Assembly (NCBI GenBank): GCA_049516875.1
Contig: JBEKSS010000007.1
Span: forward strand, 32,001 to 96,000
DNA: 64,000 nucleotides
Origin: Candidatus Bathyarchaeia archaeon
Lineage (GTDB): Archaea > Thermoproteota > Bathyarchaeia > Bathyarchaeales > Bathycorpusculaceae
Direction of reading: 5' to 3'
Every line of letters starts with the position of its first letter. Position 1 is the stretch's first letter. The position numbers and the translations under genes were made by a program. Below the pieces are notes generated by a model. It ran no database searches. It was not told where the DNA came from and was given only the letters and a program-made list of their open reading frames with translations. Below are positions 41 to 63,391 of the stretch, in pieces.

Positions 41-48
41 GCGCGCGC
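41..48. repeat. Intergenic GCGCGCGC octamer
   Basis: GCGCGCGCTAGAG; the same 13-mer is inverted at 60335-60347. Confidence 0.7.
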
Positions 49-101
49 TAGAGCGAGAACTTAAGTAACTTGGCTAAGATCTATCAGAGACGTGACTGAC
101 T

Positions 102-902
102 ATGTCTTCGTCCTCTGACCGTGTTGTGAAAGACTATTATGATGAGAAAGCTCAGACTTATGACGACTATTCGAAGCAGCTGTATTTCAAAGTGTACGAC
201 GCAGCAACATGGAAAATCACTGAGCCTTATGTTCCACGAGACTCAAAGGCATGTGTGCTCGATGCTGCTGGCGGGACCGGAAAATGGAGTGTTCCCATGG
301 CAAAGTGCGGTGCACGCGTCGTGCTAGCAGACCTTTCCGACGGAATGCTGGACGTGGCAAAAGAGAAGATTGCTAAGGAAGGTCTGCAAGACCGCATAGA
401 AACCAGGAGGTGCGACCTTCGCAAGCTGGACTTCGGAGACGAATCCTTCGACATGGTGTTCTGTGATCATGCCCTATGCTTCATCAAAGAACAAGATACA
501 GTGGTGAGCGAGCTCGTCAGAGTTCTGAAGAAGGGGCATCGTCTGATTATCTCTGGACAGAACCGTTATGTGCTGTCCCTTTCTATTGTTCAGGAAGACC
601 CGTCCCTAGCCTCCAGAATATTGGCGAAAGATTCACCGTTCGACATGCTTGACCGCGTGAAGGTCTATGCACTGTCACCAGACGAGTTTAGACAGCTGCT
701 TGAAGACAACGGCGTCAGGGTGGAGAGAATGTTCGGCAAAGTCTTCACTATGCCCCTCGGTCTGTCTCTTGAGAGACTGCAAGGAGAGACGTTCAGCAAG
801 GCCTTTGTCGACAAACTCTTGAAAATCGAGTACAGCATGCTTGAGAGGTCAGACGCTGTGCCTTTAGCATCACACATTCAGGCAGTCGGATGCAAACGAT
901 AG
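102..902 (+). CDS. Class I SAM-dependent methyltransferase
   Basis: Motif I VLDAAGGTG, acidic DLSDGML, FDMVFC, RVLKKG. Confidence 0.9.
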   Translation: MSSSSDRVVKDYYDEKAQTYDDYSKQLYFKVYDAATWKITEPYVPRDSKACVLDAAGGTGKWSVPMAKCGARVVLADLSDGMLDVAKEKIAKEGLQDRIETRRCDLRKLDFGDESFDMVFCDHALCFIKEQDTVVSELVRVLKKGHRLIISGQNRYVLSLSIVQEDPSLASRILAKDSPFDMLDRVKVYALSPDEFRQLLEDNGVRVERMFGKVFTMPLGLSLERLQGETFSKAFVDKLLKIEYSMLERSDAVPLASHIQAVGCKR

Positions 903-949
903 GGCCCAGAATAGTTCGCCCTCATGTTTAACCCGGACCGTTCACCTTA

Positions 950-957
950 GCGCGCGC
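950..957. repeat. Intergenic GCGCGCGC octamer
   Basis: TTAGCGCGCGC between convergent genes. Confidence 0.7.
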
Positions 958-1008
958 CAGAGATTCATGAAAACTTGGAAACGATTTATCGCTTTTCATC
1001 TTGTTGGT

Positions 1009-1905
1009 TTAAATCACCACGCCCATCCGGTGAAGCTCGTCCAACAGGCTTGTCTTCGTCTGTTTGAGTCTCTGCCTCTGTTCCACGTATTCGTCGCCAC
1101 TTATCTTGCCAGCTCGGAAGTCTTGGTCGAGTTTTTCCAATTGTGCATCTATGTCGGTCAGTCTCGATTTGAGCTGGTCAACGTATGAGACAGCCGCAGT
1201 CGGTTCTAACGTTTGAGCAGGCGTCAAAGCCGCTTTTATGGTGCCGTCTTCGATGCGTAGTATCCTGTCTCCTTGCCTAGCAACGTTTGGGTCATGAGTA
1301 ACCATCACGATGGTCTTGCCTAGTTCTCGGCTTATTTTCACCAAGTAGTCGACCACGATTTTGACGTTTGTAGTGTCTAATTCTCCTGTTGGCTCGTCGG
1401 CTAGGATTACTGGGGCGTCGTTGGCCAGAGCCGCAGCCATGGTTATGCGCTGCTGTTCTCCGCCGCTTAATTCGTCGGGTTTATGATCCGCTCTCTGGGT
1501 TAGGCCTACTATTTCAAGCAGTTCTTTGACGCGCTCTTTTCGTTTGCTTCTTCCCGCGCCCATGGCTATCATCGGCAGCTCGACGTTTTCAGCAGCGGTC
1601 AGCGTGGGAATCAGGTTGAGGGTTTGGAAAATGTGTCCCACGGTTTTCCTTCGATAATCAACGAGCTGAGAGGTTGACAGTGCCGTGACTTGTGTGTCAC
1701 CCACTGCAACAGAGCCTGCGGTTGCCGTGTCCAGTCCTCCTATTATGTTTAGCAGCGTAGTCTTTCCGCTTCCGCTTGGTCCTATGATTGAGACCACTTC
1801 GCCCTCTTTTACCGACATGCTCAGTCCGCGTAGGGCCTGAACTTCCACTTTGCCCAGATGATACACTTTAATCACGTCTTTGACGATTATTCCTGCACCT
1901 TTCAA
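1009..1905 (-). CDS. ABC transporter ATP-binding protein (LolD/MacB type) with C-terminal helical extension
   Basis: Walker [33 protein letters not shown]; extra ~70 aa tail. Confidence 0.95.
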
Positions 1906-4742
1906 ACTTCTCGCACCGTCCTCTCCAACCTTGAACTGTATCTTTTTGCCATCAGAACGACCGGGATGATGGTTGACGCGAAAACTAGGATGAAAGAAAT
2001 GAACAGGGTCAAGACTGCATCAGGCGGAAAGACCATGTGCCTGCTCAAGGGAGTGACTGAATAGAAGGCGGCGTTCACAGCGTTGTTTGACGCAACTACT
2101 CCGCGCACCACTATGAGTCCCACAACCGTGCCTACGAGCACTGCGAATGTCACGACCGCCAGGTTCTCAGTGAGAAGCATGACGAGCAACTGCTTGAATG
2201 AGAGCCCCCGAACGCTCATGATTGACACCTCACGTTTCCTCTCTCTCAAACTGACCAACGTAACCAGGGCGGTTCCGATTGAAGCCGCCGCCACCATGAA
2301 AAGCACGCCTAGGCGCAGAACGTTGAACGAGCCCGTTATGGTAAGGTCGCTCTGTTGATTCGCGAGTTGCTCAGTCACAGAGGACACCGAGCTGACAGCG
2401 CTGATATCTAATCCGCGAATCTGATCCGCGACAGCCTTACTGTCCGTGCCGCCCTGCAACCTCATGAGTATTTTGGCCGAGGCCGAACCAACTAAATTTT
2501 CTATTGTCTGGTTGTAGAGTCCTTCTGGAACATAAGACCAGTACTGACCTGAAGTTTGTCCAGATTCGATTCCGAAAAACCCTACAACCCTCAACTCTTC
2601 CGTCTGCACTGCCCCCGTAGATGAGTCACCAAAAGTCACGGCGACGACATCGCCCACCTTCTTGTTAAGAGCGTTGGCCTGGTTAACATCCAAAATAACA
2701 GTGTAATTATTTGAACTCATGGTCTCAAAGGCTTTTTCAACTGGGCTGCCGCTGAACATATCGTCCTCATAATAGGCTGTGGAAAGCCACGTTTTCGGGT
2801 TTACCGCCCGGAACTGCATTCCCTGTTCGTTTCCTCCAAGACCGGCCGAACCCGTGAAACTGTATTCCGCAGTTATAGATTGAATGTGCGACACGTTGCT
2901 GCTGACGGCACTCATTATCTGCGACGCATTTAAGGGCGAACTTAATGTGAAACTGACGTCCGAGCCAACGGCAAAGCGAGCTTCACGAACAACGAAGTCT
3001 TGTTCACTCGCCAGAGTTCCAACTACCTGAAAACTGTACCCAATGATGAAGGCTATCAGAAATGCGACAGCCGCGGCGCGAGCAGGGTTTCTCTGAACAC
3101 TCTTCGTGGCAAGCTTGCCTAAATCACCCAAAAACCTAGAAGCCCTTGTCATGATTTCTTGGAACTTAAACGATCCGCTTATGAAGATTTTTGTGAAACC
3201 CCAGAAGAACAGAAAGGGCCCAACGTAAGTCAGTGCGAAATCGACGAGGACAAATATCTGTAACAGAAGGAAGACGAAAACGTTCGCAGGCGCTCTTACG
3301 ACCGCCTGAACATTAATGCCTAGAAGAAACACGATAATCTTATAAGAACCGAGAAGAAGGGCAGTCCAAGGCCACAGTCGTCTGTACGGTTTAGCCTCTT
3401 CCACCTGCACGTATTCTCTCAAAGCGTCGACTGCGGCCATCTTTGAAGCTCTTCTTGCTGACCGATAAACCGAAAGAAAGGTGATGATGGCGGCGAAAAC
3501 CATGGTCAAAATGATTGTGTCAGGGCCCAGTACAAGCGCGCCGATGAATTGGCCGCCTGTGGCCGCAGCAAACCATGGAGTAACAGTGAAACTCAACACT
3601 ATGCCCAGCAAACCTCCAAGTAGCCCTATTAGTGCGGCCTCGAACAGAAACATCCACCAGAGTTGTCGCCTGGAAAACCCTTTGGTCAGTAGGAGACCGA
3701 TCTCACGGCGCCTTAGGTTGAAAGACACGTCAGAAACTGTTGAGCCCACGTACCAAGCCACAAAAAACACGGGCAACGATGCTATGATGAAGGTAGCACG
3801 CATCGCAAACGAGGTACTCTGAAAACTGTCCAGCGGATAGGCCAGATTGTCTTGAGCAGACAAACCAAAAGGTGAGACCTCTTCGTTAATCTGCGCCGTA
3901 ACCGCTGCAAGCTTGCTGGCTGAACCAGGGATGTCCCATGGACTGATAAGGCTCGAGCGGTCAACAAAAACGAGAATTGTGGTGCTGAACGGATTAGAAT
4001 ATTCAGGCGAAGAATCGTGCACGAAGTCGAGCAGCTTGGCAAAAGTTTTCTCCCAACTAGTGATCAAAAGATTCTGTGGATAAAACTGGTACTGGTTAAG
4101 AGATGCTATAGAAAGCTCCTGTTCACTGAGATGAACAAAACCAACCACTTTGAGATTGACAACAAATGATGATGTTTGTGACATGGCAGAATTTTCTTCC
4201 CAAACACCCTGCTGGAATACGTTGGCATTCGCGGTGACATTTATCGGAATGATGTCCCCGACGCGAATCTTTCCAGCGTCAGGCGAGTCTGCCCAAACAT
4301 AAGTTTCATTTTCCCCTAACGCGGATGTGTTACAGACAAGAGAATGCTCAGATATCCCAATCAAATTGGTGGAAGTCTTGAAATTAAACTCTTGAACAAA
4401 ATTATAATATGCATAAGTAGAAATTGCTTCAACTTGGGTTACGCCTTGCACACTTGAAATCGCGCTAACTGCATCTGAAACATTTTTGGAGGACAACGCG
4501 ATATTCGCTGTCGGGGGAAAGGTGTAGTAACTGTAACCCACGGAAATGTCAACTGGAATTTTGTTCAGAGTCTGATTGAGGGCCTGCCACGCAGCTGTAT
4601 CCGCGCCCACGTTGATGCCCGCGAAAAATGTTGAGGCCAAAACGATGCCTAGCAACAAGGCTATGAACAGCCGCCATGAACGAACAAGCCTCTTAAAAGT
4701 GTACGAAAATGACAATTTCAACCAAATAACAGTTTGACTCAA
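1902..4742 (-). CDS. FtsX/MacB-like ABC permease
   Basis: Two FtsX-type repeats (RRREIGLLLTKG, RKREVSIMSVRG) with extracellular loops; overlaps the ATPase start; true start may be TTG at 4721. Confidence 0.9.
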   Translation of the reverse strand: MSQTVIWLKLSFSYTFKRLVRSWRLFIALLLGIVLASTFFAGINVGADTAAWQALNQTLNKIPVDISVGYSYYTFPPTANIALSSKNVSDAVSAISSVQGVTQVEAISTYAYYNFVQEFNFKTSTNLIGISEHSLVCNTSALGENETYVWADSPDAGKIRVGDIIPINVTANANVFQQGVWEENSAMSQTSSFVVNLKVVGFVHLSEQELSIASLNQYQFYPQNLLITSWEKTFAKLLDFVHDSSPEYSNPFSTTILVFVDRSSLISPWDIPGSASKLAAVTAQINEEVSPFGLSAQDNLAYPLDSFQSTSFAMRATFIIASLPVFFVAWYVGSTVSDVSFNLRRREIGLLLTKGFSRRQLWWMFLFEAALIGLLGGLLGIVLSFTVTPWFAAATGGQFIGALVLGPDTIILTMVFAAIITFLSVYRSARRASKMAAVDALREYVQVEEAKPYRRLWPWTALLLGSYKIIVFLLGINVQAVVRAPANVFVFLLLQIFVLVDFALTYVGPFLFFWGFTKIFISGSFKFQEIMTRASRFLGDLGKLATKSVQRNPARAAAVAFLIAFIIGYSFQVVGTLASEQDFVVREARFAVGSDVSFTLSSPLNASQIMSAVSSNVSHIQSITAEYSFTGSAGLGGNEQGMQFRAVNPKTWLSTAYYEDDMFSGSPVEKAFETMSSNNYTVILDVNQANALNKKVGDVVAVTFGDSSTGAVQTEELRVVGFFGIESGQTSGQYWSYVPEGLYNQTIENLVGSASAKILMRLQGGTDSKAVADQIRGLDISAVSSVSSVTEQLANQQSDLTITGSFNVLRLGVLFMVAAASIGTALVTLVSLRERKREVSIMSVRGLSFKQLLVMLLTENLAVVTFAVLVGTVVGLIVVRGVVASNNAVNAAFYSVTPLSRHMVFPPDAVLTLFISFILVFASTIIPVVLMAKRYSSRLERTVREV

Positions 4743-4804
4743 ATAGCCAATTTCAATGTTTCGGTTCGAATGCTCAATGCATTTTCATTTGGAACATCAC
4801 AAAC

Positions 4805-5906
4805 GCGCGCTGCCTTGTCTCTTTATTATGTGTTGAAGTAGGTTGGTGAGACTGCCTTGTCTGGTCTTCTGAGGTTTTCTGCCGCTTCTCTGTTTAGAAC
4901 TAGGCACAACAAGCTGTAAAGCGCGTAGGAGGCAACGTTTCTTACGCCTCTGACCTTGTTTATGGCCAAGCTGTACTGCGTCTTGAGGAAGCTGTAGACC
5001 GCTTCAATGTGAGGCCTCTTATGATACTCCTTCTTCTGGTCATCTGGCCCGTAGGTTCGAAACTTCTTGTCCACCCTAAGGATGTCTCTTACGCCACGTT
5101 TCTGGTTAACGGGATAAGGAATCACTGCGGCGTCAACGGCCCTTCTGAGTTTGCCGTCGCTGTATTGGCTGTCAGCTATCACGCTTCTCAATCTGGCTGC
5201 AGACCGTTTGAGAATCAGCTTCGTCTTCTCCAGCATGTTCAGCGAGTGTTTCTTCTCGTTCTGGTTGGCAGAAGCAAAAGCGCAGGTCAACGGAAGCATA
5301 GTCTGAGAATCGATGCACAAGTGAAGCTTGTAGCCCAATCCGAATGTTCTGCCTGCTCTTCCAACCCTGGCTTCCTCGTCGGAATAGCCTTTCTTGTTAT
5401 CCAGTGGATGGCGCGTGCTCCAAGCCTTTATGAACGAAGCGTCAAGAACGGCATCAACGTCTTTTGCGTCGTTCCGTTTCAAGAGTTTAACAACTTTCTG
5501 TTCTATTATTCTGGTGAGGTTGTCTTCCCCGACTTTTCGGATGAACCTGCTGAGAACGCTTCTAGGATAGCCCGTCTCGCCTGTTTTGATTAGGCACAGT
5601 TTTCTGAGCCGTATGTCTGTGTCGAGTAGTCTTGTCATTTCTCTCAGGCTGCGAACACCCTTCATTCGCATGACGATGAAGGATCTGAAAACGCCCAATG
5701 GGTTTCTGGGAGGCCTCCCAGGTCCAACCGTGTGGAAGCATCTGAGCAACGCTGCTTTAGCAAAGCTTAAGTCTACGTTTCTGAAGAGGGTTTCTAGGGT
5801 CTCGTGTTCATCTTGTCCCGCTAGGATTCACCTCCTAAGCCTGGACGTAACTCACTAAATACGAGACCCCAACTGCATTAATTAATTTAGGGACAAGCCA
5901 GCGCGC
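4805..5906 (-). mobile_element. Insertion sequence (IS4/IS5-superfamily DDE), ~1.1 kb
   Basis: Inverted ends 4805-4828 GCGCGCTGCCTTGTCTCTTTATTA and 5883-5906 (revcomp GCGCGCTGGCTTGTCCCTAAATTA) match 20/24 and enclose one transposase; the terminal GCGC(GC) is probably the target duplication. Confidence 0.88.
4826..5824 (-). CDS. DDE transposase
   Basis: DASFIKA, GYKLHL, ADSQY, YHKRPHIEAVYSFLK (Y-R-E-K signature); frame stays open upstream of the ORF-track start (5749) to 5827, so the start is uncertain. Confidence 0.9.
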   Translation of the reverse strand, partial: LAGQDEHETLETLFRNVDLSFAKAALLRCFHTVGPGRPPRNPLGVFRSFIVMRMKGVRSLREMTRLLDTDIRLRKLCLIKTGETGYPRSVLSRFIRKVGEDNLTRIIEQKVVKLLKRNDAKDVDAVLDASFIKAWSTRHPLDNKKGYSDEEARVGRAGRTFGLGYKLHLCIDSQTMLPLTCAFASANQNEKKHSLNMLEKTKLILKRSAARLRSVIADSQYSDGKLRRAVDAAVIPYPVNQKRGVRDILRVDKKFRTYGPDDQKKEYHKRPHIEAVYSFLKTQYSLAINKVRGVRNVASYALYSLLCLVLNREAAENLRRPDKAVSPTYFNT

Positions 5907-6012
5907 TACGATTTGCCCCCCAAAACAAGCCCAAATCAAGCCGAAATAGGCAAAAGAAGAATTAAAACCATTTTTAACCATTTTAGCGACAAACCAGTGC
6001 CCGACAATGCTC

Positions 6013-7080
6013 TCAAGAGGATGTCGGAGAGGGCATTAAGTTTTTGATTGCTGTGAATTGAACCACTATGCCGCCTATCAGCAGTCTAGCCCAGAAAGTC
6101 AAGACTCGAATGAGAACTGTTGCTACAGCAAAGACAACCAGAAACTGTGGGCTACCAAGCAGGGCATACAAGGTTGTCATGATTATCTCTGCCAATCCCA
6201 CTTCGCCCGGGATTACGCCTATCGGCAGGTACTGGATGGCCCCGCTGATGGAGTAGACGATTATGATGGCGCTGATGGAGATTGCGGTTCCAGCAGACCC
6301 TAGAGAAAGGAAAACTAGGAGGGCTATTGACATGTCTAAGAGCCACGAGAAGGCCGTCAACACCATCGGCAGCACGAGGCTTTTTCGATGTGCGCCCAGT
6401 GTGAGAATTCCTTCATGAAAAATGTCCAGCGCCTTCGTAACCCTCTCTCGTGCCTGTTCAAGTTTCCAGCGGCCTCGCGAAACCCGCGTAATCAGGTTGA
6501 ACAGCCAATTGGCGAGCCTGCGCGTTGAACGTTTCCTCGAAGCTAAGTAAAACAGGAGGCCGATTACGACAGCGTCGCCAAGCAGGATCACAATTGCAAA
6601 TGCTAGGACAAAGAGAGGAGGTCTGCTCGTGAGCGCAAAATAAACGATGCTCACAAGCAAACCTGCAGCTGTCACGCAGGTTGTAGCAATACGTTGCCCC
6701 ACAGCAGACGCGACAACCTTACCGTAGTCTCCCCCAGCGTCTTTCGACATCAAATAAATCCTTGACACCTCGCCGCTGACGGGCTCGCCCGGAATTACCA
6801 AGTCAACAAAATTCTCAACCCAGACAAACTGGAAAGCCTTCAGAAAAGAAGTCTTAACAGACAGAAGACCCAGCAGTCGTTGCCAAACGACAGAGTACAA
6901 TGCTACACTCGCAAGAAGCGCGAAGAACGCCAACAGAAAATAGAGTGGATTGAGTCTTTTTACAGTTTCAATCAAATCACCGAGAGGAACGAAAAGATAA
7001 AGATACACGAGGAAAACTGCTAGCCCAACGACAATCAGCAGATAACGCCTTTTCAGTTTGGGGCCTTTTTCACTCGCCAT
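6013..7080 (-). CDS. UPF0104 / lysylphosphatidylglycerol synthase TM-domain (flippase-like) protein
   Basis: Multi-TM; VIPGEPVSGEVSRIY and PIGVIPGEVGLAE motifs; ATG at 7080 preferred. Confidence 0.85.
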   Translation of the reverse strand: MASEKGPKLKRRYLLIVVGLAVFLVYLYLFVPLGDLIETVKRLNPLYFLLAFFALLASVALYSVVWQRLLGLLSVKTSFLKAFQFVWVENFVDLVIPGEPVSGEVSRIYLMSKDAGGDYGKVVASAVGQRIATTCVTAAGLLVSIVYFALTSRPPLFVLAFAIVILLGDAVVIGLLFYLASRKRSTRRLANWLFNLITRVSRGRWKLEQARERVTKALDIFHEGILTLGAHRKSLVLPMVLTAFSWLLDMSIALLVFLSLGSAGTAISISAIIIVYSISGAIQYLPIGVIPGEVGLAEIIMTTLYALLGSPQFLVVFAVATVLIRVLTFWARLLIGGIVVQFTAIKNLMPSPTSS

Positions 7081-7318
7081 TGGACAACGCACCGGATGCA
7101 CAAAACCAGATGACAACTCTTGTTCTTATGCTTTAGCAATACTGCGGTAGGCGGTCGTTTTGAGGTTTAGATCCAGCGTCGGCTCGCCGTACAAAAGATG
7201 GCAACTCAATTCCATCAATCATTAGCGTCGCAGAAAGTCGTGGATTGAATGACGAATGGCAAAACCTTGATAGCGTATCCTACGAAGGGTGGAGTGACTG
7301 ACCGCTCTGTCGTTCAGG

Positions 7319-8296
7319 CTATCTGACGTAAGACTCGTTCAGCCAAACTCGCGCCCCATCAGTATCCATGGTTGCCTTGATTCCCATGGGCAACGGCAAG
7401 TTAGGCGTGTAATGACCGAAATCCATGCTCGCGATAATCGGAAAATCGTATTCTCCCGTTATGTCCAGAACGAGTTCCTTAGTCTCGTTCGTCATGTCTT
7501 TTATTCTGCGGCCCGACTTGCTTGATGAATCAGGCACTTCACCTCTCATCTTGCCGATCAACATGCCTCTTGTCCTATCAAACAACCCTGATTCTCTGAA
7601 GTGCACCAGCTTCGCGTCAAGTTCATCCAAAGGTTGCGCTATCGATTCCCAGAAGAAAATTATGTCCTCGTCCAAGTTTGGATAGTAGGGGGTCCCAAGC
7701 AGGGGCTCCGCGCTGTTTATGCTTCCGCCGAACAGTCTGCCCCTAGCCTTGCCTTCTCGCCACACTTCCCAATTGGTAAATGCCGGTAACAGCCCCACTG
7801 CCTCAGCGTTCTCGGTGATTCTGAAGAAAAGGCTTGTTTCGTACTTTGCTTCTTTGCTTTTCACGTCAGCCCCAAACCCGAAAACCACGTCTGTCTGATG
7901 AAGCCCCGTCAGGCCGGTTTTGGCCAGAAACGCCACGTGGAAGGTTGTGATGTTGCTCATGCCCGAGAAGATTTTGGGATTGTCCCTTATCAAATCGTAA
8001 TCCAGATGCCGCAACGTGCGAATCGCCACAGACCCGCCCAAGGCACAGACAATCGCGTCCACCTCTTCATCAGCAAACATATTGTTAATGTCTTCGGCTC
8101 GCTCAAGGTCTGTACCAGCCATGTATCCCATGTGCTGAAGCCTGACAGTCTTGCCTTCCTTTACCTTGAAGCCGAACCTTTTCAGGTTGTCAATGCCCTG
8201 ATTGTACTCCTGCTGAACCGGCAAAACCGGGTGTGAAGGGGCGATCACGCCAATGGTTCCGCCTTCCAAGAGCTTTGGGGGTTTCAACAGCCTCAT
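7319..8296 (-). CDS. S66 family peptidase (LD-carboxypeptidase/MccF-like)
   Basis: GVIAPS, RAEDIN, ALGG, PKIFSGMSNIT (catalytic Ser), FWE, DFGH. Confidence 0.9.
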   Translation of the reverse strand: MRLLKPPKLLEGGTIGVIAPSHPVLPVQQEYNQGIDNLKRFGFKVKEGKTVRLQHMGYMAGTDLERAEDINNMFADEEVDAIVCALGGSVAIRTLRHLDYDLIRDNPKIFSGMSNITTFHVAFLAKTGLTGLHQTDVVFGFGADVKSKEAKYETSLFFRITENAEAVGLLPAFTNWEVWREGKARGRLFGGSINSAEPLLGTPYYPNLDEDIIFFWESIAQPLDELDAKLVHFRESGLFDRTRGMLIGKMRGEVPDSSSKSGRRIKDMTNETKELVLDITGEYDFPIIASMDFGHYTPNLPLPMGIKATMDTDGARVWLNESYVR

Positions 8297-8448
8297 GCTT
8301 CTCAGCTCAATTCAATTCCAGATGACGAATTTCGTACAGATTGGACATATAAGTCTACCCTTGAACACAGGTACCCCTGGCATGTGCTACCAAAACAGAT
8401 AAGAACCTGAGTATGAACCAACAATGCGCAAGACGAGAGTGAATTGAG

Positions 8449-20734: not shown

Positions 20735-20974
20735 CCGAAACTCGTCTCCGTGGATGATGCGCGCACGGCACAATCTTGGCTGCTAACCCAATTGGCCTTG
20801 GCGTGGCTACAATCATCATAGAGGTGTGATGCTCCTCAAAGGATGATCTAGAAATAACGGCGAGGCCATGTGCACTAGGCGATGCGTATTCGTCAACACA
20901 GACGGCATGAAGTTGGGGCATCTGTCTATCAATTTGTTTCGCAAGATCACGCTTGGGATTATCTAATCGTCTAA

Positions 20975-23950: not shown

Positions 23951-24053
23951 AAATGGATTGAGAGCAAACTCTGATGACGTAAACGATGCTTTACCGAGAC
24001 GTAGACTAAACAACCTCTAGCGGTCGGTCAAGGAAAAGAATGAGCGATTGCAC

Positions 24054-26030: not shown

Positions 26031-26117
26031 ACTTCAATCTCTCCGACATCTCTTGATTTAATCAGGAATTTAAGTCTGTCGCTAGTTCATTTTTGTCTTA
26101 GCTTCCTTTTAGGGTCG

Positions 26118-38934: not shown

Positions 38935-38997
38935 AGTGGCACACCGTCAGAAGCATCGAATTGTCTCTTCTGCTTAAATTATCTTTCCACGTTTTTC

Positions 38998-39005
38998 GCG
39001 CGCGC
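38998..39005. repeat. Intergenic GCGCGCGC octamer
   Basis: Upstream of the prepilin peptidase promoter. Confidence 0.7.
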
Positions 39006-39133
39006 AGCTAAACACTGGTTTGAGGGAAAAGCCGTCAATAACAAGGCAGACTGTTCTAAAGATGGGCAAGCGAGTCTTTTGAACGGATTATCGATTTGGC
39101 TAAAAGCCTTCTGAAGGAAAGCGAACATGGTCG

Positions 39134-39352
39134 TTGAAAGGGTCAATGTTGAGTTTCGAGACCTTGTGTTTGAGTGCTCAATCCGTGATTTCTTTGAGTG
39201 TCAAAACATTGTTGAACAATGTTGGTTCCGTGCTTTTTTTACTCAATTCCGCGAGGCTTTTGAGTGTCAAAACCCTGCAATGAGCACGAAAGGCAAGAGT
39301 GCATCGGACCAAGGCTCCTATGCCACCGAGGTTAAGAGCTGAGTTTTCAAAA
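39134..39352. repeat. Array of TTGA-N3-5-TCAA-like palindromes
   Basis: Exact 15-bp direct repeat TTTGAGTGTCAAAAC at 39193 and 39259; variants at 39134, 39149, 39170, 39340. Confidence 0.75.
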
Positions 39353-39612
39353 AGAAGCCCCATTCTAGTCAGCGAGTCTGCAGTGTAGAGTTGTTGCAAA
39401 AAAAGAGCAGGCTATCTCTCCCTCCACGTGTGGGCTATGCGGTGGGTACATTGAAAAATCCCGAGTAGAGGGAATTGAAAGAGTCAGCGTATCCGCCAAT
39501 ATCCATTGGCCTGTTGCGGCGTCAAATCTAAATCAACCTCAATTCTGTAATCAAACTTGTCGATTCTTCGTGTTCTTGTCTTGGACGCTGCAATCAGCCC
39601 TTTTCTTTCCCA

Positions 39613-39679
39613 TTCATTGAGCCTTATTCAAAGCACGCAGTGCACCTTGAAGGCCAAGCGCGCGCTTGGGCTCAATGAA
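39613..39679. other. Branched inverted-repeat structure downstream of the pilin gene
   Basis: 11-bp stem TTCATTGAGCC/GGCTCAATGAA enclosing two hairpins, one being CAAGCGCGCGCTTG. Confidence 0.65.
39658..39665. repeat. Intergenic GCGCGCGC octamer
   Basis: Centre of the 16-bp palindrome CCAAGCGCGCGCTTGG. Confidence 0.7.
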
Positions 39680-39697
39680 AGAATCAAAATGGAGGTT

Positions 39698-40204: not shown

Positions 40205-40232
40205 TCAGAGTTACTGCTTATTGCCTGCCGCT

Positions 40233-43190: not shown

Positions 43191-43192
43191 TC

Positions 43193-45680: not shown

Positions 45681-45696
45681 TATGTACCGCCCCTCA

Positions 45697-46179: not shown

Positions 46180-46201
46180 ACATGAACCTCCTTTGAGTCT
46201 T

Positions 46202-47035: not shown

Positions 47036-47057
47036 GTCCGGTCTCTCTCCTCCACGC

Positions 47058-50340: not shown

Positions 50341-50405
50341 TGTTGTTCTCCTATGCACTAATTAATGGGGGGCGGAGTCTATTAAATATTGCGTCTCAAG
50401 ATACA

Positions 50406-53372: not shown

Positions 53373-53549
53373 GAGTATTCATCCGTTTTGCTGTTCAGGG
53401 TTATAGTATCCCTCTGGCAGGTGCTAGCTTAAGCGTTATGAATTGAGAATCATGCTTCGAAATCCGAACCGATTCTTCTTCCTGAGACTTCGGAATCGGC
53501 AATAGGTTTAACACTGTGAAGGGCATGTAGGACTCGACATGGAGGAGAT

Positions 53550-54326: not shown

Positions 54327-54526
54327 CCGCGACGGTGGGAAGCTTGCGTTCACAACACTGTCCCGGTGGCGTTTCGATTTTTTGTTTTTTCTCCAGACTT
54401 CTAAACAAGCAAGGTCAGAGCCGTGCAAGCGCATGCGGCGTATTCTCTTTTTTTCGAATGGAAAGACTTTTAAACGGACTAGCTAAGACTATAGAAGGAC
54501 GAAATTAAATATGAGAGGAATGAAAA

Positions 54527-57040: not shown

Positions 57041-57050
57041 ATATCGACGA

Positions 57051-58286
57051 TTGCTTTCTGAAGTGAGTACGCGGCGCAGGCGATTCATTACGTTGAAGCA
57101 GTGGCTGACTATTTTACTGTTCGTTCTTCTCTTCGTTAGTCAAGCATATGCAAGCCATATCAGCTTGGGAGAGGGGACAACACTTTCATATCAATACGCG
57201 AGAATAGGTACATCTTACCCATATTCCTCTACAAGAGGAAATGCCACGGTGAAAATGTTGGTGTCAAACCAGACAACTCTACTTATGCAAACAAGCACGA
57301 CCGAATCAAACACGCCTGTGGATATGCGTATAGAATATTCCAATGGGATTCCCGTGTACACTGATTATATTGAAGCCTTGTACTATCTTCCTCCTGAATG
57401 TATGAGTCAAAGCTTGCATGGGAATCTTAACTGGACAACGCGAATGGCAACCAGTAAGGCTGAAGTCGTCACTGGATGGGCTTCTCAGAACCTGAACTTG
57501 ACGGTGGAGGCAGGCAGCTTTGAAAGTCTCAACATCACTCTTTCCGTTCTTGCAGGATTAGACTCTGGAGCGCTGACGCTTGTCTATGATGTAAACTCGG
57601 GAATAATGATATATGAACAGTGGATTCCAGTTTCGGGAAGCCAAATCTCTGGGGATATCATCGTATTCTCGCTGAATGCGGTTATCTCTCCACCTGAAAC
57701 ACGGCAGACAATTGTCAATTCTCTCTTAGCAGCAACGGTTTTTGCCACTCCGACGGCAATGCTTCTCCATCTGATTGCCAAAGCTCTCAGGAGAAAACAC
57801 GGCAGCGGAGCGTTAGAACACATTGGCCTCAGACCTAGGGACGGGTTTCCAGCGAGACCAATGTATTTACTCGTCTTGGGCGGCTTACTAACCATGGCTT
57901 CGACGATGCTTCCGTGGGGAAAGTCGGCTGGATTGCAAGCGTACTTGCCCCTAAGCCTCTCTTCAGCCTTAGCTGGATCAGATACAATCTCCATATCCAG
58001 TCCCGCCTTTCTGACGACAAGTTTATTGGTTCACACGAGCGCTATATTGGCTTGGCTAAGCATCGCCATACACATCTATACTCACAAAACAATCGATGCA
58101 CAGGCCGTTACAATTGCTGCAAGCGCTGTGTCCTTCATGTCCGCAATTGTCTTCTTGCAAACCAGTTTGACAGTCTCATTTGGCCTGCCAGTCACCTTAC
58201 TCGCTGGTGCCCTCTTGCTAGGAGGCACAAGAATTACTAAATTCACCACAAGAAAGAGCAACATAAGCAACATCAAAGAGTCGTAG
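57051..58286 (+). CDS. Hypothetical membrane protein (exported N-domain, multi-TM C-domain)
   Basis: 411-aa ORF, signal-like helix, about five C-terminal TMs. Confidence 0.7.
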   Translation: MLSEVSTRRRRFITLKQWLTILLFVLLFVSQAYASHISLGEGTTLSYQYARIGTSYPYSSTRGNATVKMLVSNQTTLLMQTSTTESNTPVDMRIEYSNGIPVYTDYIEALYYLPPECMSQSLHGNLNWTTRMATSKAEVVTGWASQNLNLTVEAGSFESLNITLSVLAGLDSGALTLVYDVNSGIMIYEQWIPVSGSQISGDIIVFSLNAVISPPETRQTIVNSLLAATVFATPTAMLLHLIAKALRRKHGSGALEHIGLRPRDGFPARPMYLLVLGGLLTMASTMLPWGKSAGLQAYLPLSLSSALAGSDTISISSPAFLTTSLLVHTSAILAWLSIAIHIYTHKTIDAQAVTIAASAVSFMSAIVFLQTSLTVSFGLPVTLLAGALLLGGTRITKFTTRKSNISNIKES

Positions 58287-58335
58287 ATCATAGGCAAAGT
58301 TTGTCTTCAGACTTTCTCGAATGTGTATGGACAAA

Positions 58336-58343
58336 GCGCGCGC
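58336..58343. repeat. Intergenic GCGCGCGC octamer
   Basis: 50 nt after the stop at 58286. Confidence 0.7.
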
Positions 58344-58681
58344 ACTAAGAAGGGAATTGCAGTCGATGGGTTTCACCGTGCGGCATCATTAATCGTCAGA
58401 GCTGATGTACCTTGATCGTCGTCACGGAAATATCTGTCGTGGAACAAAAGACCACGGAAGAATCTGCCTAATTCGTGCTTTTTTCACTCCAATCACGCGG
58501 GATTTTCCCTTAAGTTTTCGATTGTTCTGTTCAAATTCGGCAATGGCGTACGCCCAGAAACTGTTACTAATTCTTCGTGCGGTGTAAGGTCCTTTGTGAC
58601 TGCGCGAAGTAGATTATATAAAGTTGAAAGATACTCTAGGAAACACCGACGAAGTGAAGTCAGCTGATGGATGATTCTTGA

Positions 58682-58723
58682 GCGCGCGCTAATGAAAGCC
58701 GTAGTTTCATCCGTTTAGCGCGC
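58682..58723. repeat. GCGCGCGC octamer with hairpin
   Basis: GCGCGCTAA...TTAGCGCGC arms with inner ATGAAA/TTTCAT; overlaps the stop of 58715..60085. Confidence 0.7.
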
Positions 58724-60085
58724 ACTGATCCGAGTGTCAGTTCTGGCTATCGAGCGCATGATTCTTCGCATCATAATCCACCGAAGGAAACCAATCGCGT
58801 ATTTGCTGCCCTTGTATCTTGCTGAAAAATAACAATGGAGAAAGGTCGAATGTCGATAACCTAGTGCGGATACAGGCCTGTCCAGATCAAAGGTCTTAAA
58901 CCATTCGAAAAATTCTCTTGCGCCTTGTATTCCATTCCCAGTTTCTTTTCCATTGTCTAAGATGTCCATGATGTTGTTTTGCATATCTTTCCATTCCCCA
59001 CGAAGTAAAGACTGATCTGAGGTCAGTACACCGTAGCTCAGACGGGTTTTAATCAGCTTGAACGCATCTTCGGGCCTTAGTGAAAAGTTGCTCCTTGCGG
59101 GATCAATATTCGCCAATGCCAATTCTGCTATAGTTCTTAGACATTTCTCGCATACACAGCAATTGAGAGCCTGAGGGGCCCTAGGAGTTGCAAAGAATCT
59201 GGCGCTTGAGCCGCAAACAATCAAATTAGAAAAGTAACGAGAATTACCGTTTAAGATGCGCTGCGCTTTTTCAAGTCGAGTTAGTTCATGGTTGTCATAA
59301 ACCACTCTTGTGTTGCCTACAGAAACATCAGCGAGATGGAACAAAAAGGATCCATTTGGTTCCCAGACGTTCTTGCAGTCAGACGAGGCGACCAGAAGCG
59401 TTCCAAACTGAGGCGTGAGTAGAGGGCTTGCTGCACCAACCAGAAGCAAACCATGCGAAACCGCTAAACACCAAGTGAATCCCGCTGGGAGAAAATTCTT
59501 ATCCAGCAATTCACTATTGATTAGTTCACTTGCATTTGTTTTGACAAAATGAATATCCAGTCCTTCTTGATTCGCGAAGTCTTGAAGTTTGCTTTTTACC
59601 AGATTCCAGTATCTATGTTCGCAAGTGGGAATGTCGACTCCCCATATAGAAATCAAATCAGGCTTCTGCTCCTTATGCCGCAAATACGACGTCAACGAAT
59701 CAAGACCCCCAGTAAACAGCAGAGCAACTCGTTTGCCTGAAGAAGCATCAGAAACAATATGGTCCACATGTATTTCTGTTGAGAACGAAAATCGAGGAAA
59801 CCATTTTCTGAATGTTGACTCCACATTCTTGAGAGATCTTAGAAAACAAGCATCTGCACTTTCCAGATAGACATCAGCCCCTACAGCCCATGCGACTGGG
59901 ACAACAACTGAAAGCGCTGGAATGGACAGAATACTCTTATTGATTTTCTCTATATTTTGATCAAACGTCAAGAAAAGACGATCCCCATTGAAGTATCTTC
60001 TGATTTTATCCGAAAAGTAAAACTTAACAAAAAGCCTATTGTCAACAGCCCGCAAATCATCTACTCTAATAAACTCTTTGCTCAA
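58715..60085 (-). CDS. PP-loop (QueC/MurL-like architecture) protein of unknown function
   Basis: ALLFTGGLDS; C-terminal C...CCVCEKCLRT. Confidence 0.65.
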   Translation of the reverse strand: MSKEFIRVDDLRAVDNRLFVKFYFSDKIRRYFNGDRLFLTFDQNIEKINKSILSIPALSVVVPVAWAVGADVYLESADACFLRSLKNVESTFRKWFPRFSFSTEIHVDHIVSDASSGKRVALLFTGGLDSLTSYLRHKEQKPDLISIWGVDIPTCEHRYWNLVKSKLQDFANQEGLDIHFVKTNASELINSELLDKNFLPAGFTWCLAVSHGLLLVGAASPLLTPQFGTLLVASSDCKNVWEPNGSFLFHLADVSVGNTRVVYDNHELTRLEKAQRILNGNSRYFSNLIVCGSSARFFATPRAPQALNCCVCEKCLRTIAELALANIDPARSNFSLRPEDAFKLIKTRLSYGVLTSDQSLLRGEWKDMQNNIMDILDNGKETGNGIQGAREFFEWFKTFDLDRPVSALGYRHSTFLHCYFSARYKGSKYAIGFLRWIMMRRIMRSIARTDTRISAR

Positions 60086-60339
60086 AGCTTCACCACCAAC
60101 ATCCTCAAACGGGCACTGTAGCTGTCAATTCGATCGATTGGAACTTTGGGCCCTGCACCTGAACACGCGAACGTAGTCACACTAGCCTTCCTAGCCATCC
60201 CGGATGCCTCTGCACAAATATTGTATATCAAGATTTAATATGATATTCCTCCAACAGAATGTATCAAAAAACGATAGGTCCCGAAAGCTGTCTCTCGACC
60301 AATCGATCAAAACAAAGATGATTCACGCGCACTACTCTA

Positions 60340-60347
60340 GCGCGCGC
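60340..60347. repeat. Intergenic GCGCGCGC octamer
   Basis: CTCTAGCGCGCGCG between divergent genes. Confidence 0.7.
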
Positions 60348-60639
60348 GGGGCGTTTTGATGCTTGCAAGCGCATTTGCAACAATGGGCAAAAGAATGTGA
60401 AAGGCTAAAAGTGACCGCGTCTTCTGTCATTCGGCGTCAGAGTCTCAACCTTGGCGACGGGATGTCAACTTCACGCGAAGGATTTCCCCTAGACCTTTTT
60501 CAACTCTTTTATCTTCACTCACTGAGCGGATTGTTTGAAGGCGCTGATATGTTTATATAAATTGCACGGCTATCTGAGTTGTGACCTGTAGCTGATTTAG
60601 CGTGTAAACTCCCATACACTGGGGTTCGAGGGCGTCCTG

Positions 60640-63345
60640 TTGAAGAAGATTGGAGATAGGCTGCATGCTAACCATTTGGAAATCATAGTGCTTATTGTAC
60701 TTTTCCTGTTCAGCCTTAGAGTCATCAACTGGTTTGAACCACCATATATATTGACTAGTGGAGACTTGAGGGCTCCGTTAGTTAATCAAGCCTTTGTCAA
60801 TCGCGTCATGTACACGTGGAATGAGATAGACTTTGGTCTACCTTCAGTTTATTCTCCTAGAATTCTTGATCCGTTCTATTTTTTCATGACAGTTCTACAG
60901 TCTCTTGGCGTTGGCCTATATTTATCCGAGGTCGTGACAGTGTTTTTGTTGTTTTTCCTTTCATCTACACTTATGTATGTATTTGTGAAGCAAGTGACAA
61001 ACGGTGACGTTGTTGCATCACTCGTGGCTGCTCTCTATTTGACTTCTAATTTGTATCTGATCAATGACAGAGAAGCGACAGCTATTGGGTTCATAGATAT
61101 CACGCTAATTGTCTTGCCCTGTTTGATAACGTTCGTAAAAGGAATCAAGACACAATCATACAGAATGATAGCAATTTCAGGGATATTATGCACACTGACC
61201 TACGCCACGTTTCCAAACTACAGGACGACTCTTATCTGTCTAATCACGCTTGGCCTACTCTCTGTTTTTTATTTTGCAACTAAGGGGTTACATGTTAGTT
61301 TCAATAGTCAAAAGGGATCCAAGAAAATATCTGGGGTATACGTGGATGTTGCCTTGCTAGGACATTATTTTAAGCTTCTTGTAGTTTTTGTAACCGCGCT
61401 TTTGTCAGCGTCTATCTGGGTTGGTGCAATACTCTTTTCAAGTTTCAATGTTTTGAGTGCAGCATACGCTCAGATAACTACACCAGTGTTTGTTGGTGGC
61501 CTAAAATTATACGACGTAACAAGACTCATTGTAAAATGGGGTTTCTACAGCGGCGCTCTAGGCAGGCCATACCTCCCTTACGGCCATGTATACTTAGGCG
61601 ACCCCTTAATCATCATTCTTTGCTACTTTCCTGCCATTTTAGCGTTTGCAAGCCTGTTATTGTCCAAAAAACATGAAATTGCGCTGTTCTTTGGTTCTGT
61701 GGCCATTCTTGGCATTTTTCTAGCTTCAGGCTTCAGCTTCAATCAATATATAAACAATTTTTACACCGCTTTGGTGGGGCTTCCTTTTCTCAATGCCTTC
61801 AGAGAAGCGTCAAATTGGATATTCTTCGTAATTATCTCTTTCAGCATTCTCATAGGCATGACCTCATCGGTCGTGTTTCATAGGTTCAAAAACAAGGTGC
61901 TACGGATACTCGTGATAAGCCTTGTCGCTCTTCTCTTCATTACGACAACGTATCCCTTAACTACAGGTGAAGTTGCAGAAAACTGGCTTAGCCCAAACAT
62001 TAAAGGGACATATCTACCATCTTCTTATGTCCAACTCAATGATGTGCTTTCAAATCAGTACTGGGCTCTCTTGCTTCCACAAAGAGGTACTTACGTCACC
62101 TACAATTTTAGCGGGATGCCCTTTGGTGCTGGAAATCCTTACCCACTGATTTTTTCGAAGCCCATAATATCTGGATCAGGAACAGAATACATTCAGTCCG
62201 AAAACCTAGACTTGCTGAATAAAGTTTATGGATTGATGCTGACAAACGAGTATGAAAATGTAGCACCCGAAGGAAACGCTTCAGGGAGTTCAGTCGGAAA
62301 AAACGGATTAGTACCAGCTCAAGCCATTGATGGAGATTATGGCACCAGATGGGCGTCTGAACACGGTATGCCACAGTGGCTCGAAATCGATTGGAACAAG
62401 AACCAAGAATTGTCAAGAATAAAGATAGTTTTCGAAAATGCATACGCAAACGACTACACCATAGAAACGTGGAACGGCTCCAACTGGACAACCCAAACAA
62501 AAGTGGAAAACAACACCAGTCTTCAACCTGAATATGCATTTTCACAGTTGACTCCTACAACGAGGCTCCGCATAAACTTCACCGAGGCTTTACCCTTTAA
62601 TATGGTAAGCATATGGGAACTGGAGGTCTACGCTCACACCGAGGCAGTTTCAAAATTTCTAGGTATGTTGGGCATCGAATCCCTTGTACTTGAAAAAGAC
62701 ATTGTTTTTGGTAATGTATACGACGTGAGCGAGCTCAGGATTAACCAAAGCGACAACTTTATTCTAACTAAAGAATGGGACGAAGTCCTACTGTACAATA
62801 ACACCTGTGCGTTGCAGAAACTCTACACAGCCAATAACATCTTTAACTATGCAACATTAGATGACATTTTCCAAATCGTAGATAAGTCAGAATGGGAGAC
62901 TTTGCAACACTCCGCGCTTATCAATTCAACATCAACAAGCACAATAAAAAACGATGAGCTAGTGTCCCCAGAAAACTTTGTGTGGACAGAGCTCTCTCCC
63001 GCGAGCTATCTGGCACACGTGGAATCGACAGGTCCCTTTGTCTTAGTTTTTTTGGAGAGCTATGATGAACACTGGAAGGTGTCCGTAAACGGCAATCCAG
63101 TTTCTGAAACAAACCATCATGACGTGAACGCTTTTGCAAACGGTTGGCTAATAAACAGCACAGGAGACCTTACAATATCGATACAATATGAGACACAAAA
63201 CGTTTTTCTTATATCGGTAGTTGCGTCTTTAGTTCTTCCCGCGCTGTTACTAGCATTCTTGAGCAGAAAAGAACTAAGGAGGATCGGCAATCTAATTCGT
63301 CGCAGACTCAAATCCATGAAAGTAAAATCGAAACATGAGATGTGA
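60640..63345 (+). CDS. Multi-TM GT-C-like (AftD/YfhO-like) protein with F5/8 type C discoidin domain
   Basis: More than 10 TMs; AIDGDYGTRWAS...WLEIDW...SIWELEVY; FLESYDEHW...NAFANGW tail. Confidence 0.75.
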   Translation: MKKIGDRLHANHLEIIVLIVLFLFSLRVINWFEPPYILTSGDLRAPLVNQAFVNRVMYTWNEIDFGLPSVYSPRILDPFYFFMTVLQSLGVGLYLSEVVTVFLLFFLSSTLMYVFVKQVTNGDVVASLVAALYLTSNLYLINDREATAIGFIDITLIVLPCLITFVKGIKTQSYRMIAISGILCTLTYATFPNYRTTLICLITLGLLSVFYFATKGLHVSFNSQKGSKKISGVYVDVALLGHYFKLLVVFVTALLSASIWVGAILFSSFNVLSAAYAQITTPVFVGGLKLYDVTRLIVKWGFYSGALGRPYLPYGHVYLGDPLIIILCYFPAILAFASLLLSKKHEIALFFGSVAILGIFLASGFSFNQYINNFYTALVGLPFLNAFREASNWIFFVIISFSILIGMTSSVVFHRFKNKVLRILVISLVALLFITTTYPLTTGEVAENWLSPNIKGTYLPSSYVQLNDVLSNQYWALLLPQRGTYVTYNFSGMPFGAGNPYPLIFSKPIISGSGTEYIQSENLDLLNKVYGLMLTNEYENVAPEGNASGSSVGKNGLVPAQAIDGDYGTRWASEHGMPQWLEIDWNKNQELSRIKIVFENAYANDYTIETWNGSNWTTQTKVENNTSLQPEYAFSQLTPTTRLRINFTEALPFNMVSIWELEVYAHTEAVSKFLGMLGIESLVLEKDIVFGNVYDVSELRINQSDNFILTKEWDEVLLYNNTCALQKLYTANNIFNYATLDDIFQIVDKSEWETLQHSALINSTSTSTIKNDELVSPENFVWTELSPASYLAHVESTGPFVLVFLESYDEHWKVSVNGNPVSETNHHDVNAFANGWLINSTGDLTISIQYETQNVFLISVVASLVLPALLLAFLSRKELRRIGNLIRRRLKSMKVKSKHEM

Positions 63346-63372
63346 AACGCTTCCTAACAAACAACCTTCGTG

Positions 63373-63391
63373 GCGCGCGCGTAGCGCGTTT
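63373..63391. repeat. Intergenic GCGCGCGC octamer plus CGTAGCGCGTTT
   Basis: 28 nt after the stop at 63345. Confidence 0.7.

Follow-up and report, generated by a model that had tools for sequence, protein, structure and literature searches.

A GC-alternating octamer at inserted, deleted and swapped DNA in Bathyarchaeia points to a possible undescribed way of cutting and rejoining DNA

A 64,000-nucleotide stretch of the genome of a Candidatus Bathyarchaeia archaeon (assembly GCA_049516875.1, contig JBEKSS010000007.1, positions 32,001 to 96,000; hereafter the window) raises the question why one short palindrome, the GC-alternating octamer GCGCGCGC, recurs between its genes. The window is part of contig 7 of a 2.43-Mb, 20-contig genome (G000). 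A preliminary description of this DNA listed eight copies, at positions 41, 950, 38998, 39658, 58336, 58682, 60340 and 63373, placed all of them outside coding sequences, estimated that less than one copy is expected per window, and proposed that the octamer marks the boundaries of accessory DNA. All eight copies are present at these positions, and none falls into an open reading frame (ORF) on a crude map that consists of the longest ORFs of at least 70 aa, chosen greedily and with over-extended starts. Dinucleotide-preserving shuffles of the window contain 0.80 copies on average and 3 at most, and none of the 100 shuffles reaches 8. The location of the octamer at inserted, deleted and swapped DNA points to a possible undescribed way of cutting and rejoining DNA, as far as can be judged from sequence comparison. 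The reading that we favour, with a probability of roughly 40%, is that GCGCGCGC is a joint mark, one copy of which is left at each joint when DNA is broken and rejoined.

Octamers at the edges of variable DNA

The alignable core of the window, relative to the genomes of four other species of the same genus (G001, G002, G003 and G004, which may share a source study with G000 and with each other and, in this case, are not fully independent), extends approximately from 8386 to 56835. The ~48 kb of syntenic DNA within this core (~8386-38993 and 39664-56835) contain no octamer, and all eight copies are found inside DNA for which the four genomes yield no alignment, or at its edge; simple arithmetic puts the probability of such a distribution at ~1.5e-5 if one quarter of the window is variable. 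The proposed association with boundaries of accessory DNA is borne out by the alignments of relatives, in which breakpoints fall on the octamer to the base. The 668-bp segment that carries an octamer at either end (38998-39665) is missing in all four genomes, and the empty sites contain no octamer; a contig from run X9, which joins 38966 to 39665 via 32 letters of diverged flank, has none either, so that there are five empty sites in total, all without the octamer. The interval 58336-60347 contains two inserted segments (338 and 1650 bp), with one octamer at each outer end and a third between them; in L120, a more distant contig, this interval measures only ~360 bp, without either segment and without the octamer. 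The strain contig L121 (95-99% identical to the window) differs within the same interval: a 6-nt CGCGCG indel behind 58550 makes an extra octamer, the sequence 58589-58690 is replaced, so that different DNA adjoins the octamer at 58682, and the identity to the window is 94.95% on the left of this octamer and 99.13% on the right. The stretch homologous to G004 terminates precisely at 63373, where the G004 sequence runs on with no octamer.

Genome-wide, 42 octamers of G000 are located in stretches broadly syntenic with G004 (83-87% identity). Neither flank aligns for 21 of these, one flank aligns flush with the octamer and the other not at all for 6, and 3 are embedded in aligned DNA, compared with 123, 18 and 81, respectively, for 400 random intergenic positions. 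Ends of homology blocks lie within 3 nt of an octamer in 5 of 210 cases (G000) and 8 of 210 (G004) versus 0-1 in three shifted controls, the ends of BLAST alignments being uncertain by a few bases; at the flush breakpoints between these two genomes, the G004 side has no octamer. The comparison of the closer pair, G004 and G002 (94.7% identity over 167 kb aligned), identifies 26 collinear indel or replacement events, 10 of which have a full octamer at the edge versus 0.56 expected (binomial P ~9e-11). This expectation derives from random 45-nt windows drawn from all DNA, 0.5-0.6% of which contain an octamer, and a rough rescaling to the density in spacers lifts it to ~2.5. Four more of the 26 events have a 6-8-nt alternating GC run at the edge, one of which is the end of an insertion sequence (IS).

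Several alignments include sites with and without the octamer at the same locus. The G004 version of a PHP-domain gene has exactly GCGCGCGC in place of 406 nt (window positions 29021-29428); the gene (28829-29455) is intact in G000 and G002. G003 and G001 also have no comparable stretch of this gene, but there is no octamer at that place. A second sealed deletion, detected between G004 and G002, replaces 43 nt with the octamer, and in a third one, 313 nt are replaced with CGCGCGC in G002. At position C1:390793, G000 has the octamer in place of a 9-mer that is common to G004 and G002 and, because these two genomes share the 9-mer, the octamer is the derived state; at another site, the octamer is found in three genomes and a related 7-mer in two. 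The octamer sites that are not conserved between G004 and G002 include clean insertions of 10 and 15 nt, replacements of 7-11-nt blocks and ordinary point changes, and the 15-nt insertion that makes an octamer carries a 3-nt direct repeat. The A that precedes the octamer (position -1) is usually native to the conserved flank. On the evidence of these aligned sequences, octamers originate through insertion or replacement of blocks rather than through point mutation.

Octamers also border DNA that appears to be captured. A fragment of G004 (C1:259326-260958) matches G000 C3:109479-111110 with 95.5% identity, which clearly exceeds the genome average, and has octamers flush at both sides, whereas the G000 copy, which consists of two divergent genes cut near their stop codons, has none (the nearest ones are at C3:104051 and C3:112812). 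Paralogous segments within G000 display a like contrast, with flanking octamers in one copy and none in the other. A 1029-nt insertion in G004 contains four octamers, and there are arrays in which single-gene segments are parted by single octamers. Of 22 octamer sites in the G004/G002 alignments, 12 are conserved, compared with 692 of 1012 for other palindromic 8-mers and 22 of 41 for all-GC ones; that is, the octamer shows no extra conservation of the kind known for HIP1 (highly iterated palindrome 1, GCGATCGC) of cyanobacteria.

Abundance, form and spread of the octamer

The whole genome contains 447 overlapping copies of GCGCGCGC that merge into 388 runs. In the genome-wide count against a Markov null that the preliminary description proposed as a check, GCGCGCGC is the top 8-mer by z-score, with 894 occurrences on both strands versus 61.3 expected under the order-3 model (~15-fold; the excess is 15- to 18-fold over order-1 to order-3 expectations), and the runners-up are its own extensions, AGCGCGCG and TAGCGCGC. 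An order-6 model, with 831 occurrences expected, absorbs most of the excess because GC-alternating words share overlapping sub-words. Intergenic DNA comprises 14.9% of the genome on the crude ORF map and fully contains 260 of the 388 runs, with 123 located in ORFs and 5 partially so, which corresponds to a roughly 12-fold greater density of the octamer in intergenic DNA than in ORFs. In two 'coding' octamers that were inspected, all differences to the relative are synonymous or affect a single base. The octamers are present in other data as well: contigs from run X4 match those at 39658, 58336 and 58682 without differences, and the metagenome contigs L121 and L126 also bear the octamers.

The octamer is preceded by A in 61% and followed by T in 57% of the cases, with a weaker preference for T and A, respectively, one step outward. 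The two flanks are independent: A at -1 together with T at +1 is found 140 times versus 137 expected, and TA on both sides 27 times versus 23.7 expected. Logos of the 776 flanks reveal no longer conserved flank, and none of the k-mers within 40 nt of the octamers is clearly enriched. Alternating G/C runs of 6 to 12 nt in spacers number 219, 107, 158, 74, 35, 3 and 1, respectively, and five other dinucleotide alternations decay geometrically with length; a single G/C run of 13 nt and another of 14 nt are the longest, and 16-mers are absent. Hence, the unit is a discrete 8-mer, with occasional extension by chance flanks or by one GC. A slippage-prone or Z-DNA-prone microsatellite was considered and rejected: the run lengths peak at 8, there are 3 spacer runs of 11 nt, and there is no long tail. 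According to one analysis (PMC4060949), prokaryotes generally suppress alternating purine-pyrimidine patterns.

The octamers are clustered, with an excess of 50-1600-bp spacings over the Poisson expectation. Their density is nearly the same in tandem (0.74 per kb), divergent (0.69) and convergent (0.75) spacers and, therefore, speaks against a role in promoters or terminators. Many octamers are located 10-70 nt past stop codons; in the window, five copies (950, 39658, 58336, 58682 and 63373) are found 25-51 nt from a stop, in line with the five that were said to lie 25-50 nt past one. Genome-wide, no fixed distance to start codons is detected, the distance distributions being broad. As remarked in the preliminary description, ATGAAA is found 9 nt downstream of the octamers at 950 and 39658, but this does not hold generally (18 places among the 776 flanks, with no positional peak), and this spacing was discarded as a coincidence.

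The octamer is found in 168-646 copies in all five genomes of the genus (e.g., 253 in G003 and 168 in G001) and in 0-30 copies in most sister genera; G010 has 7. A survey of 251 genomes of Bathyarchaeia, in which a genome was scored as positive with at least 10 copies of AGCGCGCGCT (the A(GC)4T motif) and at most 5 of the reversed control, identifies enrichment in ~25 genomes from several families (e.g., 119 copies in G113, 131 in G115, 94 in G107 and 106 in G121), so that the trait is class-wide but patchy. In G107, a genome with 40% G+C from another family than G000, a 200-kb sample contains 34 runs, of which 28 are intergenic and none exceeds 10 nt; A at -1 (28 of 34) and T at +1 (27 of 34) are preferred more strongly than in G000. 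In G018, from a sister genus, there are 227 matches to GCGCGCGC versus 209 for the reversed control, with overlapping matches that form 10-12-nt runs; this pattern looks like a longer-run form of the motif or a true GC microsatellite.

Window features, insertion sequences and repair genes

Table 1. Octamers and neighbouring features of the window
Feature	Coordinates	Strand	Remarks
Octamer GCGCGCGC	41..48		Divergent spacer, inside the non-syntenic block 1-8386
Octamer GCGCGCGC	950..957		Convergent spacer, 47 and 51 nt from two stops; non-syntenic block
IS5/IS1182-like insertion sequence	4804..5906	-	DDE_Tnp_1 ORF 4826-5749; inverted-repeat tips (C)GCGCGC at 4804-4810 and 5901-5906
GCGCGC hexamer	20759..20764		Same spacer: (GC)5 in G004; GCGC, 161 nt, GCGCGCGC in G002
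668-bp gene-less segment, GCGCGCGC at start and end	38998..39665		Insertion absent from relatives
Octamer	58336..58343		First of three in the spacer between genes 57051-58286 and 60640-63345
338-bp gene-less segment between octamers	58344..58681		Strain-variable
Octamer	58682..58689		Identity jump across it in L121
1650-bp segment between octamers	58690..60339	-	One 456-aa ORF, 58715-60085
Octamer closing the two-segment insertion	60340..60347		Third of three
Octamer	63373..63380		27 nt past the stop of gene 60640-63345

The shorter GCGCGC noticed earlier at 20759, at 58718 and at the ends of the window IS (4804/4805 and 5901) is present in all these places (Table 1). The first of these hexamers looks like a decayed or rearranged octamer site when the spacer is compared with its counterparts in G004 and G002. 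Those at the IS ends are part of the inverted repeat (IR) of the element and do not represent a target duplication. The body of this IS spans ~4811-5900, and its best NCBIfam matches are IS1182 and IS5, both below the cut-off. GCGCGC-tipped IRs are also found on IS copies in G001, G003 and G004 and on a more remote family (46% identity) in G121, G113 and G002. A comparison of two identical IS copies in G121 indicates that the hexamer is part of the element, often with TA just outside, and a 6-kb insertion in G004 opens with TA, GCGCGC and the IR, where the G002 site has no GC run. Copies of the IR pattern number 21 in G000 and 56 in G004, some of which belong to 303-bp miniature inverted-repeat transposable elements (MITEs). 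The MITE-like elements of this size, at C2:99002-99305 in G000 and at several loci in G004, have the IRs of the window IS with GCGCGC tips; a second IR type (GCGCGCATGCTTGTTCC) is represented by numerous solo ends dispersed over G000, G002 and G004. Only one full copy of the window IS is present in G000, which has little repeated DNA; on these grounds an abundant IS was rejected as the source of the octamers.

The IS5-like family or its IR is present in all five genomes of the genus and in G113, G121 and G099; the IR pattern is absent from six octamer-rich genomes (G107, G115, G119, G172, G104 and G234), and G207 has a single IR match and no transposase match. Searches of G107 for DDE_Tnp_1, DDE_3, the TnpB-type zinc ribbon and Y1_Tnp are all negative. 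Thus, a transposase acting beside (GC)3 exists in the genus but, given the lack of a match in G107, cannot explain the motif everywhere. Among the five genomes searched, DDE_3 is found in none and the TnpB-type zinc ribbon in three; Y1_Tnp (PF01797) is found in G002, G004 and G121 and not in G000 or G107. There is no C5 methyltransferase (PF00145) match above the cut-off in the genus, and N4/N6 methyltransferase (PF01555) is present in 28 of 31 genomes and does not discriminate between them.

An operon for bacterial-type non-homologous end joining (NHEJ) is encoded at C9:90149-93943 of G000 (locus L149:6149-9943), between octamers at C9:90085 and C9:96335. It consists of genes for a LigD primase-polymerase, Ku, a ligase fused to a 3'-phosphoesterase, and a DUF72 protein. 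Ku together with the LigD primase-polymerase is found in only 4 of the 31 genomes (G000, G002, G004 and G010).

The 456-aa ORF of the 1650-bp segment has no family match in Pfam or NCBIfam and, therefore, is not treated as a transposase. The 668-bp segment includes a ~127-bp repeat (39146-39272) with internal TTTGAGTGTCAAAAC-like sub-repeats, of which G000 has more than 60 full or partial copies, often in local clusters; contigs stack on this repeat to very high depth and break at 39158 and 39272, and its predicted fold is unremarkable (z = -1.9). An Rfam scan of the segment yields nothing but a sub-threshold match of CRISPR-DR25 (25.4 bits versus a gathering cut-off of 36) to a 29-nt sequence (39453-39481) that ends in ATTGAAAG; both halves of this sequence are single-copy in the genome, so that it looks like a stray or decayed repeat. 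The adjoining region (38119-53372) is an archaeal type IV pilus locus that encodes a prepilin peptidase, pilin-like proteins, a PilB-/PilC-type ATPase and platform, and large surface proteins; no functional link to the insertion is seen.

A mark at DNA joints and its alternatives

The fixed length of the unit, its origin at sites free of GC runs, the pattern of one, two or three octamers, the independence of the flanks and the native A together make a joint mark the best fit to the observations. The arithmetic of the joints would be straightforward: a deletion would leave one octamer, one captured fragment two, and n fragments n+1. A more specific and doubtful part of this reading is an end-joining or end-healing route that would write a fixed self-complementary sequence onto broken ends and thereby make cassettes. 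Under this scheme, all broken ends would receive an identical palindromic tail or linker, probably (T)A-GCGCGCGC-T(A), with ends that already finish in A favoured via one or two bases of microhomology; the tails would then anneal to each other, any two ends being compatible because the tail is self-complementary, and would be sealed, possibly by the products of the Ku/LigD operon in G000, G002 and G004. The 8-mer itself could be supplied by a templated or template-free polymerase or by fill-in of a staggered cut. Such joints would be tolerated in spacers, notably just past stop codons, and purged from genes, which would account for the intergenic bias and for the clustering in accessory islands.

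Several observations weigh against the joint mark. To our knowledge, no known end-joining route writes a fixed 8-mer, and no enzyme that would supply the octamer was found among the families searched by presence or absence, with reverse transcriptase detected in 0 of 31 genomes. Neither G003 nor G001 has Ku/LigD despite their 253 and 168 octamers, and G010 has Ku/LigD but only 7. The 123 runs in 'coding' DNA amount to almost a third of the 388, although some of the ORFs on the crude map are perhaps not real. Furthermore, 12 of the 26 events between G004 and G002 have no GC run at either edge, and many have an octamer at one edge only, so that the octamer route is not the sole way of joining DNA; some events resemble cutting at a pre-existing octamer, with one-sided deletions and GCGC microhomology at the edge. 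The DNA compared amounts to no more than ~420 kb for G004, 330 kb for G002 and, in the case of one close strain, 13 kb. Within the window, a gene for a PQQ-like beta-propeller protein (24054-26030) belongs to an insertion (23976-26132) without octamers at its edges, where G004, G002 and G003 have ~84-110 bp; hence, not every indel carries the mark.

Ku/LigD-dependent NHEJ with filler sequence or fragment capture resembles the proposed route in the small losses of target, the capture of unrelated fragments and the use of microhomology, as well as in the presence of the operon in three of the octamer-bearing genomes. As a rule, NHEJ introduces either untemplated bases, one to a few in number, or a copy of sequence nearby, and we know of no case in which it adds one fixed 8-mer. 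The octamer, furthermore, is abundant also where Ku was not found.

Among the rivals, the one that survives best, although we consider it unlikely, holds that the octamer is a cleavage hotspot, i.e., a sequence that a nuclease, recombinase or transposase recognizes and cuts. Fill-in of a staggered cut would duplicate the octamer around an insert, religation of two cut octamers would delete the DNA between them, and segments with an octamer at either end would move as cassettes. This explanation is compatible with the arrays of single-gene segments parted by single octamers, with the one-sided deletions directly beside octamers, with the (GC)5 formed in G004 in the spacer of the 20759 hexamer, where G002 has GCGC, 161 nt and the octamer, and with the strain-level differences and the change of identity beside the octamer at 58682; moreover, the IS5-like IS and the MITEs with GCGCGC-tipped IRs demonstrate that a transposase cutting next to (GC)3 exists. 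Clean empty sites, however, are free of the octamer in the case of the 668-bp insertion, the PHP-domain gene, the 43-nt deletion, C1:390793, and the 10- and 15-nt insertions. A solo run opposite a partly flanked insert is seen at one site only (G004:C6:8338), the longest runs, of 13 and 14 nt, fall short of a 16-mer, and G107 contains 94 of the 10-mers without a match to any of the four transposase families searched. The joint mark and the cleavage hotspot could also be halves of one system.

Of the explanations offered in the preliminary description, recombination or target sites that build cassette arrays come closest: the octamer-separated genes and the flanked foreign fragments agree with this idea, whereas the empty sites mostly lack the octamer, which therefore is not simply a pre-existing target. 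The likeness to integrons, in the form of single-gene segments, a short recombination-like site just past the stop codon and arrays that differ between relatives, does not extend to the details. The attC sites are 60-150-nt imperfect palindromes that are recombined as folded single strands at one attI by IntI; the mark considered here is 8 nt long, is dispersed over all contigs at hundreds of loci instead of an attC/attI platform (IntI itself was not searched for), seals plain deletions, and is missing from the empty sites.

Excision footprints of a transposon are an improbable source. In this scenario, a cut-and-paste element with GC-alternating tips and a TA target would leave tip remnants on excision, and flanked cargo would keep two footprints, as is known for short palindromic insertions beside TA produced by Tc1/mariner, IS630 and IS5-family elements. 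The consensus tA-GCGCGCGC-Ta indeed resembles a TA duplication with tip remnants, several IS and MITE ends in the same genomes read TA|GCGCGC, as does the beginning of the 6-kb insertion in G004 opposite a G002 site without a GC run, the run lengths end near 10-12 nt, as two 6-nt tips predict, and the 15-nt insertion with its 3-nt direct repeat fits. In contrast, new octamers replace 7-11 nt or seal deletions of 43-406 nt without target duplication, and the left and right flanks are independent, including TA on both sides. The IR remnant TTGTCC is found in only 4 places among the 776 flanks. The single intact IS and scarce repeated DNA of G000, together with the abundance of the motif in G107 in the absence of a matching transposase there, also disagree with this origin. 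The version put forward in the preliminary description, a transposon that duplicates GCGC, fails because the ancestral sites have no GCGC and 7-406 nt of the target are lost or replaced; self-complementary GCGC overhangs, in addition, should anneal to leave 4 nt rather than 8.

We regard as similarly improbable a selected motif with the octamer acting as an uptake or Chi-like signal, a methylation site or a nucleoid element, and the junctions arising by illegitimate recombination. The closest known kind is HIP1, copies of which reportedly bordered a deletion in the smt locus of Synechococcus. Both motifs are hyper-abundant, GC-rich 8-bp palindromes common to whole lineages, and the stronger flank preference in G107 would suit selection. 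HIP1 is over-represented 15- to 300-fold (PMC5861425) and is found in many but not all members of its clade (PMC5861425, PMC4390886), with proposed roles as a transformation aid, a Chi-like site or an uptake sequence, and recent work ties it to gene transfer and recombination (bioRxiv 2024.09.10.611283, PMC13756078). HIP1 is, however, enriched in genes in all three reading frames and conserved above control palindromes (PMC5861425), whereas the archaeal octamer is found in spacers, is strongly depleted from long ORFs, shows conservation that is not raised over controls and arrives at joints. HIP1 also has cognate methyltransferases, and no C5 methyltransferase above the cut-off was found in this genus. 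Furthermore, octamers are born by insertion where the partner genome has none, and microhomology between two existing copies cannot explain such joints.

Other short repeats are less similar. The uptake sequences of Neisseria (DNA uptake sequence, DUS) and Haemophilus (uptake signal sequence, USS) are likewise short, lineage-enriched and linked to DNA exchange, but such sequences lie inside imported DNA, spread by homologous recombination and are not written at segment ends, whereas the archaeal octamer is located at the ends of inserted or deleted segments. The octamer may also be a site for a DNA-binding protein, akin to repetitive extragenic palindromic sequences (REPs) or prone to form Z-DNA, as was suggested in the preliminary description. 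REPs, along with their bacterial interspersed mosaic elements (BIMEs), REP doublets forming hairpins (REPINs), REP-associated tyrosine transposases (RAYTs) and IS elements inserting into REPs, are likewise lineage-specific, intergenic and palindromic, with hundreds of copies. These, however, are hairpin-forming units of ~20-40 nt spread by a Y1 transposase, and the octamer, with only 8 nt and its A/T flanks, is far shorter; no Y1_Tnp match is found in G000 or G107.

A role as a transcription signal, in a promoter or terminator or in the binding of a global regulator, is very improbable. Although the octamer is intergenic and palindromic, with many copies shortly downstream of stops, it is equally dense in convergent spacers, which have no promoters, and in divergent ones, which have no terminators, keeps no fixed distance to start codons, is poorly conserved at 95% identity and lies flush with the edges of indels. 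Chance, base composition, dinucleotide slippage or an assembly artefact can be practically dismissed despite the order-6 expectation, given the 15- to 18-fold excess over simpler models, the peak of the run lengths at 8 with a stop near 10, the same motif in the 40%-G+C genome G107 and the same octamers in contigs of other runs and assemblies.

The motif is not described in the literature searched on archaea, Bathyarchaeia, HIP1 and octamer palindromes, which was judged partly by titles and the beginnings of abstracts and excluded the supplements to the HIP1 papers, where other palindromes, including non-cyanobacterial ones, may be listed; to this extent, the earlier statement that no such archaeal element has been described holds. 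Overall, the observation made in the preliminary description is confirmed, and its interpretation is partly supported.

If the joint mark is real, it would amount to natural linker ligation that seals deletions and stitches captured fragments together as ready-made, octamer-bounded gene cassettes, and the octamers would be a countable record of past joining events. If the octamer is instead a hotspot or a footprint, it would still be the main driver of structural variation in these genomes, being involved in no fewer than 10 of the 26 indels that separate G004 and G002. HIP1-like hyper-abundant palindromes have been unexplained for thirty years, and here a comparable archaeal motif can be tied, base by base, to the gain, loss and exchange of DNA; given its patchy distribution, with enrichment in ~25 of the 251 genomes, phyletic profiling can trace the gene behind it. 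Should the octamer prove to be written at joints, this would be a new DNA-joining chemistry and a possible route to the birth of cassette arrays, and gene captures would become countable and datable in an abundant, uncultured class of archaea.

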